DNA of 64,000 bases from Symsagittifera roscoffensis (lineage: Eukaryota): assembly GCF_963678635.1 (NCBI RefSeq), contig NC_087064.1, positions 45,985,437-46,049,436 of the forward strand. The letters run 5' to 3'. The notes beneath the pieces are model-generated. The model had not been told where the DNA came from and did not search any database. It saw only the letters and a list, made by a program, of their open reading frames with translations. Position numbers and translations under genes: made by a program. How positions within the stretch are numbered: the first letter of the stretch is position 1; each line of letters starts with the position of its first letter. Shown here piece by piece: positions 21,920 to 26,690 of this stretch.

Positions 21920-22385
21920 GTGACGAAGACCTGGTGGCTACTTCAAGAGAAGTTTTTCAGCGAGGGGAGGCTCGTAGTGGTCAGCATAGAAGACCAAATT
22001 GCGATGCTTTGCCTAGAACCAGGCGATGACAACCAATTCAAAAACAAGGTTCGTTCAAAAACAAGAGCTAAAGACGCGGTTGAACGAAGTGTGGACATTA
22101 TCAGCGACACATTCTTCGTTGCTCTCGGTTGCAATAATCTGCCTGAAAGGTCTTACTCGGCTGTCTGGCTGCTGAAAAAGCTGTGTATCTACGAGGATTC
22201 GTTGCGGAGGAAAGACTGGGTATACGAGGAAGATAAGTGAGCTGTTGTCAGTCGGAAGAGGCGAGGATGTGCAAATCGAGATTTGCCGGGTCAATTTAAT
22301 GCTTGAGGCAGTGAGCCAAAAGAACTCGATGGGTCAGCTTCAAAGAAAAGAAGGGTGCTTCACGTGTGGGCAACTTGGTTACTTT
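21920..22385 (+). pseudogene. Older gag fragment (…ISDTFFVALGCNNLPERSYSAV…CFTCGQLGYF) cut off by the LTR-element insertion.
   Basis: The sequence has UBN2-like motifs. A degenerate zinc knuckle C-X2-C-X4-Y-X4-C is split by the 22386..25360 element and resumes at 25366 (…ARYCNRGNQG). Confidence 0.45.
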
Positions 22386-22626
22386 TGTTAAGTTTCGGAG
22401 AAATGACCTCTCACTTTATAGAGAAGTCATTTCCCACTTTTTGGTTCAAAATAAAAACATGATTGGATATAGCACGATGTCACGCGATATCGCGCGATGT
22501 CATATCACGAGATCAGATCTCAACAGGCGGTTAACTTTCCATATATATAGAAGCTGATTTACTACTCTTTTATCGCTCTCTAATTAAACTGTTGATTATA
22601 CCTAGTTTTGCTGCTAACCTGTGAAA
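22386..22626 (+). repeat. 5' LTR (241 bp, TGTTAAG…CTGTGAAA).
   Basis: Direct repeat of 25120..25360 at about 97% identity. Confidence 0.75.
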
Positions 22627-22865
22627 GGTTATGGGCCCAGCAGTAAAATACGTGTCAGAAGTCAAGATTGACTGACTTAACAACAAACGTTGAAAGAGCA
22701 AGCTGTAAATTGTTGACACAGTTAAAGTCACAAAAAACAGACAACCGTGGAAAAAGTCACAAAGAAGATAGTGAACTGGCAGATAGACAACAGAGCAATA
22801 CAAAGAGTCATTGAGACAGGGCATTGAGACAATTCAGTGATCAGTGAAGTCTGGAGTCACAAGGA

Positions 22866-22896
22866 AAGCTGAAAGAAGCACACGAGAGAAAGAGAT

Positions 22897-22945
<49 letters not shown>

Positions 22946-22980
22946 TAGAAAGAGAGAGACAGAGAGAGAGAGAGAGAGAA
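22866..22980. repeat. (GA)n microsatellite, imperfect.
   Basis: Directly visible agagagag… tract. Confidence 0.9.
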
Positions 22981-23408
22981 ACAGCGATAGATAGAAACTG
23001 ACAAACTGTTCAATTTGATAAACTCAGTTGATGTGGTGTTTTATATATTTGTAGATATGTGTTGTTGCTTGGGGGATCGTATTCCGTCGCTGCGAGATCT
23101 GACCTCCAACCAGATTTAAAAAATAGAAGTTCAACAAATAAAAAAACACTCCAAAATTTCTATTGTGCTAATATATATTGCTATGTATGAAGTCTGTGAA
23201 GTAACCTTAGCTTTGCTACATCGCTGATGTGTTATTCAGTACGCTTACCGTTAGGTTTTGGATCAGACTTAGGTAATGAGATACATGATTACTTATATTA
23301 TGCGCTGCGATATGATTGCTGATATAATTTAGTCTGAATTTTGGGTCATTGAGAAGTACGTGGAACATAAGATATATTTGTTCAGAGCAATACGGCTTAG
23401 GTGAAAAA

Positions 23409-24449
23409 ATGTCTAAGTCAGAGAGAATAGTGTTTTCAGGAAAAGAAGAAGACTTTTTGTATTTTGAAGAGCAATTTGAGGCTAGAATTTTTCATCTTAA
23501 ACTGAATAAAGTTATCAATAGAGAAGTAGATGAGAAAGATTTCGCACCCAGTGTTAGGAAAAATGCTACTGTAGAACAGAGAGAGGCATCTTTGAGAAAA
23601 TGGAGATAAATTTTAGGTGAAAAAGAATTGCATGTTTGGTATGAGTTGGTGCTATGTTTAGACAAAAAATCTGTTTTGTTTTTAAGACCCTTTAAAGGCA
23701 AGGGAAGTAAGGCTTGGGAAATTTTGTGCAAAAGGTTCAAAAGCGCCGAGAGACCTAGACTGCAGCAATTGATTTCAGATTTAACTTCGATAAGAATGAA
23801 AGCTAATGAGAGTGTAGTCGATTATATCACTAGAGCTGAAGAGTTGCAGTATAATTTAGATGAAGTAGACGAGGGTTTAAGTGAAAATATGTTTGTGTCA
23901 ATCATTCTTAAAGGCCTACCAAAAGAGTTCAATACGTTTTGTACTTTGGTTAAGTTCAGCAAAGATGATAAGAGTTTGAACGAAATTAAGAATGATTTGT
24001 TAAAATTTGAAAGTGATCATAGAAATGAGAAGGAGGAGACCGAACATTCGTTTATTTCGAGAACGAAAACATGTTTTAGGTGCAATAAGACAGGACATAT
24101 AGCAGCTCATTGTAGAACTAAGTTAGTGAATAAGGTTAACCAGTCATCTAGTGATAGATCTCCTGTGAAATGTTTCAGGTGCTTAGAAATAGGACACATA
24201 GCTAGGGATTGTAAGAAGGAATTTGAGAGAAAAAGCGTGAGAGAAGACCAGCTGTTAGCTGAAACAAATGAAACTCATTTTAGCTTTTACAACTCGGCTG
24301 AGAGAGTCGACGGTAACCTAGTTATATATTCAAGCTCAACTTGCAGTATGATAAAGGATAAGAATTTATTTGTTGAGCTTGACCAGAGTTTTAGCGAAAC
24401 TGTTGAAAACGCTAACAAAACGGAGTCTAAGGTTTTAGGTAAAGGATGA
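23409..24449 (+). pseudogene. gag: Copia-type gag (UBN2-like N-terminus plus two CX2CX4HX4C zinc knuckles) interrupted by a TAA at 23607-23609.
   Basis: MSKSERIVFSGKEEDFLYFEEQF… is followed by a stop. The sequence then continues as KGSKAWEILCKRFKS…CFRCNKTGHIAAHC…CFRCLEIGHIARDC. The 273-aa downstream part (23628..24449) is still open. Confidence 0.7.
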
Positions 24450-24482
24450 GTTGAGTTTTTCGTAAAAGATTCTCAAGGAAAT

Positions 24483-24600
24483 TCGAAAAAAATTCTATGA
24501 GTGATTGTTTCTGTGTACCAGAAAACTCAGAAAATTTAGTGTCCGTCTCAAAACTTACTAGAGGAGGAGCAAATGTAGTTTTTGGAGAAAAGTGATGTAT
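24483..24600 (+). pseudogene. Vestige of the copia pol N-terminus ('gag_pre-integrase' motif NLVSVSKLTRGGANVVF) containing a stop.
   Basis: Translation matches the conserved copia motif LxSVSxLxxxGxxVxF. A stop follows GEK. The rest of pol is deleted. Confidence 0.4.
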
Positions 24601-25119
24601 TGAGCAAGGAAATGGGACTGTTTATCCACTTAGTGAGCGAGGTAATCTTTTCATTTGGAAAATAATAGGATTTAGAAATCGCACAAAATTAGGTGTTGAA
24701 AAAGTGGAAAGCAATTCAGAGTTCAGAGTCAATAAGACTTATTTTTGCAGAGAAACAGAAGAGAAGAGTTTTATTTAGCAAAATGAGAACTTGATAAAAG
24801 ACGATGATATAAGGAAAGAAGTTGAGCTGAAAAATGAACCTAGAGCCCATCCAAAATCTAAAACGTCATTAGATGAACGAGGTAAGGAGGAGTCGAGAAA
24901 CTTATGCGAGGTTGAGAAGTTTCAGAGTATGGACATGAAGTTAGGTTCAAAGCTAAGGGAGCGTAAGAAGTTTGAAAGCAGAGCAGGCAAATTGATACGG
25001 ATATTTGACTTAGGACATAAAAAAAGTGATATTGCTCTTAACAAACATCGTATGGGACATGGTAAAACTGAACCTCCAGACCAGTGTAGGCTATGATTTA
25101 GTACTTAATTTGAAAGGAG

Positions 25120-25360
25120 TGTTAAGTTTCGGAGAAATGACCTCTCACTTTATAGAGAAGTCATTTCCCACTTTTTGGTTCAAAATAAGAACATGATTGG
25201 ATATCGCACGATGTCACGCGATATCGCGCGATGTCATATCAAGAAATCAGATCTCAACAGGCGGTTAACTTTCCATATATATAGAAGTTGATTTACTACT
25301 CTTTTATCGCTCTCTAATAAAACTGTTGATTATACCTAGTTTTGCTGCCAACCTGTGAAA
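25120..25360 (+). repeat. 3' LTR (241 bp).
   Basis: Direct repeat of 22386..22626. It is preceded by a polypurine tract and followed by TSD ACTTT. Confidence 0.75.
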
Positions 25361-25365
25361 ACTTT

Positions 25366-26690
25366 GCAAGATACTGCAACAGGGGAAATCAGGGTATCTC
25401 TGTTGCTGTAGAAGGTATTAGATGAAGGGCATATAGAGCACCACAGAGATGTCTTCTATCTTCGGGAGCTGGAAGAGAGGAGAACAGTGGAAAACCCAAA
25501 CAGAACTATCCAGGGTCAAGGGGTCATACGAAGTAGAGATAAGAGACCGCCACTTAACTGTAAGGAGGCATAAATATCAAGGAGGCCAGTTTCTGTCGAG
25601 CTTATGAGCAACAAATTAGCTGCAGGCACTTCATTTACAGGCACTAGATGGTGAGCAACTACCTGTGAAGCAAGGTGACAAGCTTTGCTTTCTTCACGAT
25701 TAGGTCAAGTGGAAGCCATTGACTCGAGCGCCGAAACCAAATCGGGAGTCTGGTAATGCAAAGTTGTCGCGCCACCGACTGAGGCGCCTCAACACAGACG
25801 ATATAATATCAGTTGGCAATGTGGACGAGCTGGAGCACTGCGAAGTGCTCATAGCTGAGAAGATGCATACAGCTGTAGTGGCAAAGAAGGCTGACTACAC
25901 GGCACCGGCAGTGGTTATGAAGTGACATCTAGACACTATTCGAACTTCTGAGCAGGCATGGGGTACCCTATGCATTGGGTTCTCTCGAAGGGGTCAAGTA
26001 CCAGGTGAAGAGAAGTGATGCTCAACTGACATTCAAGTGTTTGCAGCTGAGCCAGGAGCTCCGAAGAGTCTACAAACTGATAATGGAGAAAAATATTCAT
26101 CACGATTATTTCGGTTTTCTAGAAAATAACAGGGAAAGCAAGAGTCCAGAAAGCTTGAGACCTTGCAGCAGAGCCTTACAGAGACTAAGTGTCTACTGGC
26201 CGAGGCAAGGCGTAGAAGGTCAGCAACTTGAGCAAAAAGGAGTGCATTTCACAGATGGAGATGCAATTTGGTAATTAATCAAACGTTGGGTACCTTCGTA
26301 TGATCGCACGCCTGGCGAATTATCTAGACAGCGGCAGCAGTCGGAAATAAAATCCGATAGGCAAAAATAATTTCGTTGGCTAAAGAAAGCCAGGTATATC
26401 TGCTGGTGGACCTAGTGACAGCATGAGTGGTGTGGACAGACGACCTCATGGTTGACAGTATTTCATCGTGAACCCCGGGACTATTGACTGAGCGTTTTAC
26501 TGAGGTGGAGGAATCGCCGACATCCAGCGAAACACTCTTGATGGTGATACTACAACTTTAGAGGAAACTTCTGTCTGAAAAAAACTCCGTTTGCCAGACT
26601 CTAATCCGGATAGAATTGGACTGGTATTACACTCTAAGCGTTTGTTCCCAAGCGACAGTGTCCACTAAAAAAGCAACAGCTTCTCAAGGA
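25366..26690 (+). other. Degenerate internal remainder of the older retroelement (GC-richer, broken ORFs).
   Basis: Composition is about 45% GC, unlike its surroundings. It continues the split gag codon. The ORFs 25719..25925 and 25975..26274 have no recognisable motifs. Confidence 0.3.

Follow-up and report, generated by a model that had tools for sequence, protein, structure and literature searches.

Nested insertions of long terminal repeat (LTR) retrotransposons in repeat-rich intergenic DNA are classic in maize and in other plant and animal genomes. Non-autonomous LTR elements of the TR-GAG class, known from plants, are shorter than 4 kb and carry LTRs, a primer-binding site (PBS), a polypurine tract (PPT) and an open reading frame (ORF) for Gag only (2015, PMC4350172). 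Half-tRNA priming, in which the anticodon stem-loop of initiator tRNA-Met (tRNAiMet) is used, has been described for Drosophila copia and yeast Ty5 (PMC5371799). Tandem arrays of LTR retrotransposons that share internal LTRs have been documented (Morales-Díaz et al. 2025, PMC11899658), as have Cassandra/TRIM arrays (PMC13570524). Here we analyse a stretch of 64,000 nt from Symsagittifera roscoffensis (NC_087064.1, positions 45,985,437 to 46,049,436, forward strand; hereafter the window), in which a 2,975-bp LTR element (the inner element) interrupts an older, GC-richer sequence (the outer fragment). It is very probable, in our view, that LTR retrotransposons of the Ty1/copia type are present at the locus in two generations, the younger of them a non-autonomous element that was mobilised in trans, inserted into the older fragment and then decayed. 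The features discussed below are listed in Table 1.

The inner element and its insertion site

The 241-nt direct repeats that bound the inner element are the only long direct repeat in 21700-26900, as found with a repeat finder and by reading of the sequence. Pairwise alignment gave seven mismatches between them (four transitions and three transversions), corresponding to 97.1% identity and a Kimura two-parameter (K2P) distance of 0.0297, and when the flanks were included identity began and stopped exactly at the repeat boundaries. Using probes from both LTR ends, with up to three mismatches allowed, we found exactly two sites in the window, zero being expected from shuffles. Within the window, therefore, they do not belong to any longer array. 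The target site duplication (TSD) ACTTT, 5 bp in length, lies directly before the first LTR and directly after the second. An 8-nt purine run adjoins the 3′ LTR, and purine tracts occupy the equivalent position in two related loci (GAAAAGAGGAG in L004 and AGGAGGAG in L002). The GC content of the insert is 36.2%, versus 34.5% for the whole window. Candidate promoter and polyadenylation signals were picked out in the LTRs by inspection.

The 16 nt that follow the 5′ LTR pair without a mismatch to nt 24-39 of tRNAiMet, the reference being the human sequence from PMC8274982. Complementarity starts at the first base past the LTR and covers the tRNA's anticodon stem-loop, not its 3′ end, which points to the half-tRNA mode of priming. 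The same PBS is kept in all copies of the family and in an autonomous element, that of L002 (L002 3632-3645). No tRNA or Rfam match was found in the window and related loci, and the junction of LTR and PBS had no exact counterpart in JGI metagenomes. The leader downstream of the PBS holds an impure (GA)n microsatellite (~22884-22990) and a short (CA)n.

When the insert and one copy of the TSD are excised, the outer frame reads ...KEGCFTCGQLGYFARYCNRGN..., which restores CFTCGQLGYF/ARYC (the slash marks the junction); the uninterrupted reading across this empty-site junction is …GGTTACTTTGCAAGA…. Translated in six frames, the rejoined window contains a single match to the pattern C[FY]xCGxxG[HY]xAxxC, which was found neither in the intact window nor in 100 shuffles. 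A paralogous element, L008, was compared with the window. Its positions 8505-8645 align straight through the junction (22289..25409, blastn, E 8e-9), and it has an intact knuckle, CFKCEQPGHFAREC, at the junction position. In the alignment GCFKCEQPGHFAREC of L008 stands opposite the rejoined GCFTCGQLGYF/ARYC, and L008 has no extra sequence there; the empty site is therefore verified and the knuckle is real. The outer knuckle is degenerate, with His replaced by Tyr. A preliminary description of the locus, made from the sequence alone, had placed the insertion within such a degenerate CCHC knuckle, and its boundaries, length, LTR identity, PPT and TSD for the inner element agree with those found here. 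It had also named a longer tandem array of the repeats as a finding that would speak against it; the window locus has two LTR copies.

The protein record of the window's own outer ORF (P0018) led to three further contigs with the same nested locus, of which ERZ25071366 has two and ERZ25878734 one. Their identity to the window is 98.3%, 99.5% and 97.7%, and all of them show the identical two-LTR geometry; the insertion is therefore common to these haplotypes or individuals.

We also examined the coding content of the inner element. A stitched internal translation matched Pfam Retrotran_gag_2 (PF14223, copia-type gag/UBN2; 5e-17), two zf-CCHC knuckles (9e-10) and Pol_BBD (5e-12). The layout consists of gag (~290 codons), a stretch of ~140 codons whose homology is to the protease/beta-barrel part of pol in autonomous copia elements, and a tail of ~130 codons, so that the part after gag amounts to ~270 codons. 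Integrase (IN), reverse transcriptase (RT) and RNase H were not found in the inner element by Pfam or by homology comparison with autonomous polyproteins, and of pol only the protease-like (PR-like) Pol_BBD was detected. The preliminary description, which spoke of a gag-only copia-like element with a pol stub of ~40 codons, was thus right about gag, about the loss of most of pol and about the affinity to copia, but the post-gag part is longer and retains a protease-like domain, so that gag-PR is the better label. No relatives of the tail were detectable outside the inner-element family. Its last ~14 codons (ALNKHRMGHGKT) show a resemblance, at an E-value of 1.2 that is not significant alone, to the motif at the C-terminus of RNase H in the L002 pol; such an end would tentatively fit an internal deletion. 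We considered whether the …HRMGH… motif near the 3′ end is the pre-integrase motif WHxRLGH and rejected this, since homology to autonomous pol ends before integrase. The motif seems, tentatively, closer to the AL.KN..HGKTKH stretch at the C-terminus of RNase H.

The window copy is 94.9% identical to the intact ORF of its family and carries four nonsense mutations, GAA>TAA at 23607, AGA>TGA at 24447, TCA>TGA at 24593 and GAG>TAG at 24776. The stops are scored as mutations because intact copies carry sense codons at these positions. An alternative genetic code that would read through in-frame TAA, TGA and TAG was rejected on the same grounds, the intact paralogues having GAA, AGA, TCA and GAG there, as under the standard code. 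There are also a 1-bp deletion at ~24497, which shifts the frame, and a 3-bp deletion, and the DSGAT motif of intact copies reads YSSST. An exact-protein look-up of the window gag ORF from its first ATG returned no record. To judge from these lesions, the window copy is dead and without present function. From K/2r, with K = 0.0297 and assumed rates r of 1e-8 to 1e-9 per site per year, from which the host rate may differ, we infer an age of ~1.5-15 million years for the insertion.

The family of the inner element

Homology searches returned close relatives that are 84-93% identical to the inner element, none of which has integrase or RT. More distant relatives (P0005 and P0006) are full gag-PR-IN-RT copia polyproteins with 48-50% amino acid identity. 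In L002, which holds P0006, the succession of gene matches is gag, Pol_BBD, gag_pre-integrase, rve, RVT_2. The terminal repeats of L002 were reported at 3225-3524 and 8723-9022; in the sequence they continue past 3524, and with the PBS at 3632-3645 as a guide the 5′ LTR is ~407 bp long. Homology of the window element to the L002-type polyprotein ends at 24673, just ahead of integrase.

The intact ORF of the family, seen on L001 and L009, has 559 codons and comprises gag, two knuckles, Pol_BBD (1e-17) with DSGAT and a 130-codon tail. The same 2.5-kb interior with the same LTRs is present at other sites, with the TSD CCCAC in L004 and CAAAC in L003. Because different TSDs occur at different sites, the deletion derivative has itself transposed. 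The absence of TSDs at other copies was the second finding that had been named as speaking against the preliminary description, and its view of the inner element as a non-autonomous deletion derivative is borne out by these copies and by the missing IN, RT and RNase H. Clustered at 90% identity, the family's protein has 27 members, which are spread over at least 10 different contigs. Pairwise ratios of nonsynonymous to synonymous substitution rates (dN/dS) between diverged copies were 0.32-0.62 for gag, 0.57-1.4 for the protease region and ~1-1.6 for the tail, values that rest on just 10-34 substitutions per class; they hint that Gag may have mattered while the family spread. By its gene content and TSDs, the family is non-autonomous yet has been mobilised, and the description that suits it best is that of a copia-derived gag-PR element resembling TR-GAGs.

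Two of these loci show further features. The copy at L003 6026-9681 is rearranged: its 5′ flank (6026-6427) has been copied (402 bp, 99% identical) to a place directly before the 3′ LTR, where the final 88 bp of the interior are missing, leaving CAAAC on both sides of that LTR. In L004 a Gypsy-type RT/RNase H (RVT_1, RT_RNaseH; 11625-12426) lies ~7 kb downstream of the family copy, in keeping with a genome dense in transposable elements.

The family also occurs in tandem. Contig ctg11387c (L009; assembly ERZ25071366), 14,697 bp in length, consists entirely of LTR-internal-LTR-internal units with shared LTRs, and L001 shows the same arrangement. The array has at least 5.5 units, ~99% alike and ~93% identical to the window copy, and no unique flank is present in the assembly. 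Some units are internally deleted and two have intact 559-codon gag-PR ORFs. A trailing ‘c’ in a contig name denotes a circular path in some long-read assemblers, and tandem arrays often assemble in this way; the suffix of ctg11387c is possibly such a flag. One could go further and propose that this gag-protease-only family is an actively propagating non-autonomous copia class in an animal genome, with Gag, and possibly protease, selected for its own packaging, and that it also multiplies through homogeneous LTR-sharing tandem arrays, perhaps via multimeric or circular DNA. We regard this extended proposal as unlikely.

The outer fragment and competing explanations

The outer fragment was identified through L008. 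An exhaustive phmmer search of 1.8 billion proteins with the translation of window:21872-22237 gave two matches, P0018 and P0019. The latter is 45% identical to the outer ORF (E 3.3e-4) and itself matches Pfam Retrotran_gag_2 at 4.2e-12, i.e. it is a copia Gag. It lies in L008, a ~4.7-kb element whose genes match rve and RVT_2 and which has LTR-like direct repeats at a distance of 4.4 kb. Against the window with the insert removed, tblastn placed the L008 gag at 21899-22147 (E 3e-10), its protease-integrase (rve) gene at 25506-26198 (37% over 273 aa, E 8e-25) and its next gene at 26215-26367 (1e-4). At the DNA level L008 and the rejoined window are collinear over five blastn segments, reaching 26432, so that copia-type Gag, PR and IN follow one another as in L008. 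The left part carries stops and a frameshift. No flanking direct repeats (LTRs) or TSD of the outer fragment were found in the window. The LTRs and RVT_2 genes of L008 have no match anywhere in it, and no outer RT or RNase H was found.

At 47.4% and 46.5% GC, the outer flanks exceed both the insert (36.2%) and the window as a whole (34.5%). This GC-rich zone is bounded at ~21.8-21.9 kb and ~26.7 kb against a background of 34%, and its composition suggests that the fragment extends to ~26694, where a 2.5-kb repeat block starts. By homology to L008, the fragment is a truncated copia remnant that runs well past gag. The preliminary description had given an older, GC-richer retroelement at 21920-26690; those limits and the GC contrast agree with ours, but what it had read as gag runs on into protease and integrase.

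Table 1. Coordinates of the inner element, its duplicated target site and the outer fragment (window positions)
Feature	Position	Strand	Remarks
Outer fragment, left part	21899..22385	+	C-terminal two-thirds of gag to the middle of a CCHC-type knuckle (…CFTCGQLGYF)
Left TSD copy	22381..22385	+	ACTTT
Inner 5′ LTR	22386..22626	+	241 bp, TGTTAAG…GTGAAA
TATA-like run in 5′ LTR	22542-22549		By inspection only
AATTAAA in 5′ LTR	22582-22588		By inspection only
Primer-binding site	22627..22642	+	GGTTATGGGCCCAGCA, complement of initiator tRNA-Met nt 24-39
Untranslated leader of inner element	22643..23408	+	
Inner gag, family-ORF codons 1-290	23409..24278	+	Pfam Retrotran_gag_2, zf-CCHC
First CCHC knuckle	24072-24113		CFRCNKTGHIAAHC
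Second CCHC knuckle	24171-24212		CFRCLEIGHIARDC
Protease-like Pol beta-barrel region	24279..24673	+	Pfam Pol_BBD, tblastn of P0005/P0006
Tail of family ORF, ~130 codons	24674..25096	+	
Polypurine tract	25112..25119	+	GAAAGGAG, directly 5′ of the 3′ LTR
Inner 3′ LTR	25120..25360	+	241 bp, 7 differences vs 5′ LTR
AATAAA in 3′ LTR	25316-25321		By inspection
Right TSD copy	25361..25365	+	ACTTT
Outer fragment, right part	25366..26432	+	Knuckle remainder (ARYC…), degenerate protease and integrase remnants

On the account we favour, an LTR-less gag-protease-integrase fragment (~21.9-26.7 kb) was already present when a 2,975-bp non-autonomous copia member entered it, at the codons for the zinc knuckle of Gag, with duplication of ACTTT. 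The family of this member has lost IN, RT and RNase H and kept Gag and the protease-like domain in its 559-codon ORF. RNA would have been transcribed from the 5′ LTR and packaged by the element's own Gag, and its minus strand would have been primed in the half-tRNA mode by a fragment of tRNAiMet annealed via the anticodon stem-loop. For reverse transcription and integration it would have depended on an autonomous copia element in the same genome, one with the same PBS, acting in trans. Decay after insertion then brought the four nonsense mutations, the frameshift, the lost DSG motif and the 2.9% divergence of the LTRs.

Several observations weigh against this account. In every copy examined the LTR termini are TG…AA (TGTTAAG…CTGTGAAA), not the canonical TG…CA. 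Among autonomous elements none was found that is close to the inner family in its LTRs or gag; the nearest, of the L002 type, has ~50% Gag identity and is otherwise like the family only in its PBS, the start of its LTR (TGTT…) and its PPT. No empty-site allele was found, all three of the orthologous or allelic contigs carrying the insert. As for the outer fragment, a single paralogous element, L008, carries its assignment, which in the case of gag is transitive. Pfam gave no match on the three forward frames or the stitched outer gag, a word-indexed protein search with the 484-aa stitched outer translation gave none either, and a home-made hidden Markov model built from nine copia polyproteins (--max, six frames of the rejoined window) recovered the knuckle only, at an i-E of 0.027.

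These silent searches are what one would expect if the GC-rich flanks were a decayed host gene or processed pseudogene for a CCHC zinc-knuckle protein, and cellular proteins do have such knuckles. The upstream outer ORF nevertheless matches a protein that Pfam recognises as copia-type Gag (P0019), and the downstream flank matches the L008 protease and integrase genes in order, with collinear DNA over five segments. L008 is itself a transposable element by its LTR-like repeats, rve and RVT_2, and a host-gene origin of the flanks is exceedingly improbable. Nor do we give much more weight to the idea that the inner unit belongs to a domesticated or amplified cluster of host gag-protease genes of which the window copy is a pseudogene. 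The intact 559-codon ORFs do sit in a tandem array and gag dN/dS is below 1, but a low ratio for gag, counted on so few substitutions, is equally expected of a retrotransposing lineage that needs Gag, and the protease and tail regions look neutral. Copies that have an LTR at each end, a PBS, a PPT and, at dispersed sites, differing 5-bp TSDs show the pattern of integrase-mediated insertion, which leaves the host-cluster explanation very unlikely.

Finally, the repeats might not be LTRs at all but mark where a local duplication, tandem or segmental, begins and ends, or represent a single period of a satellite of 2.7 kb. The unit is truly arrayed over 14.7 kb on L001/L009, and tandem and segmental repeats abound in the window a short way downstream of the insert. 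The window locus, for its part, has two LTR copies around a single internal region, a perfect 5-bp TSD and a correctly placed PBS and PPT. Excision recovers both the reading frame and collinearity with an uninterrupted paralogue, other single copies carry different 5-bp TSDs, and the three additional contigs share the two-LTR geometry. We believe there is next to no chance that a duplication or satellite produced this arrangement, and retain the insertion of a younger copia derivative into an older copia fragment as its explanation.

Genomic surroundings and comparison with known systems

A tandem and segmental duplication block occupies 26695-44465 of the window and starts exactly at the end of the outer copia fragment. 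Its paired segments include 26695-29213 and 29209-31716 (94% identical), 32254-35691 and 41033-44465 (97%), and 34973-36924 and 37250-39204 (98%). Each 2.5-kb unit holds an imperfect palindrome of ~590 bp (27960-28548 and 30474-31056). Other tandem or local duplications, with identities of 67-97%, lie at 10053-10930, 17534-19200, 51605-54685 and 57219-58560. An unclassified dispersed repeat of ~490 bp, its copies 77-89% identical, was found at 20599-21088, 32402-32877 and 41181-41666 on the plus strand and at 14491-14784 on the minus strand; one of these copies is ~0.8 kb upstream of the outer fragment. The window as a whole is repeat-rich and has few long ORFs, six of at least 110 aa in 64 kb. 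A 117-aa ORF at 1736-2089 on the minus strand may be a host exon. Its resemblance to WD40 is weak, with a Pfam E of 0.009 that misses the cutoff, and the one relative found in the database is a copy in the same assembly set, 98% identical.

The locus is an ordinary case of repeat layering in a repeat-rich, gene-poor stretch, and the region should be annotated as ‘repeat’, not as ‘gene’. It provides a clean and fully verifiable example of nested retrotransposition for which the reasoning of the preliminary description was sound, although by itself the example carries little weight. It also documents a non-autonomous gag-plus-protease copia family with a half-tRNA primer site (the tRNAiMet anticodon stem-loop), present both as dispersed insertions and as tandem arrays with shared LTRs, structures that have so far been catalogued mainly in plants.

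Among described systems, the inner element is closest to TR-GAGs. It is shorter than 4 kb, has LTRs, PBS, PPT and TSD around a single Gag-encoding ORF, is without RT and IN and is multi-copy, and like TR-GAGs it occurs as transposed copies after pol loss, here at three sites with different TSDs as well as in an array. Unlike TR-GAGs, which encode Gag only, the ORF of the inner family continues through Pol_BBD with DSGAT and a 130-codon tail. In addition, TR-GAGs were described from plants, and the PBS of the inner element matches the anticodon stem of the animal-type tRNAiMet, from which plant tRNAiMet would probably differ.

With Drosophila copia and yeast Ty5 (Ty1/copia, Pseudoviridae) the window element shares a PBS that complements the tRNAiMet anticodon stem-loop and not the 3′ end, a 5-bp TSD and a copia-type Gag, and its relative in L002 has the order gag-PR-IN-RT. 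It differs from them in having no IN, RT or RNase H and in LTRs that end in TG…AA, and its mode of priming is predicted from the sequence. L009, with its LTR-internal-LTR-internal units and shared LTRs, resembles the plant tandem LTR arrays (PMC11899658, PMC13570524). Unlike members of those tandem-array families, the window copy is a plain single insertion, and the array sits on another contig, with internal deletions and no assembled flanks.

As in classic nested insertions, a younger element breaks an older, more decayed one, and the interruption itself tells which of the two came first. We see no essential difference between the two, except that the position of the insertion point within the knuckle codons makes the empty site easily verified.

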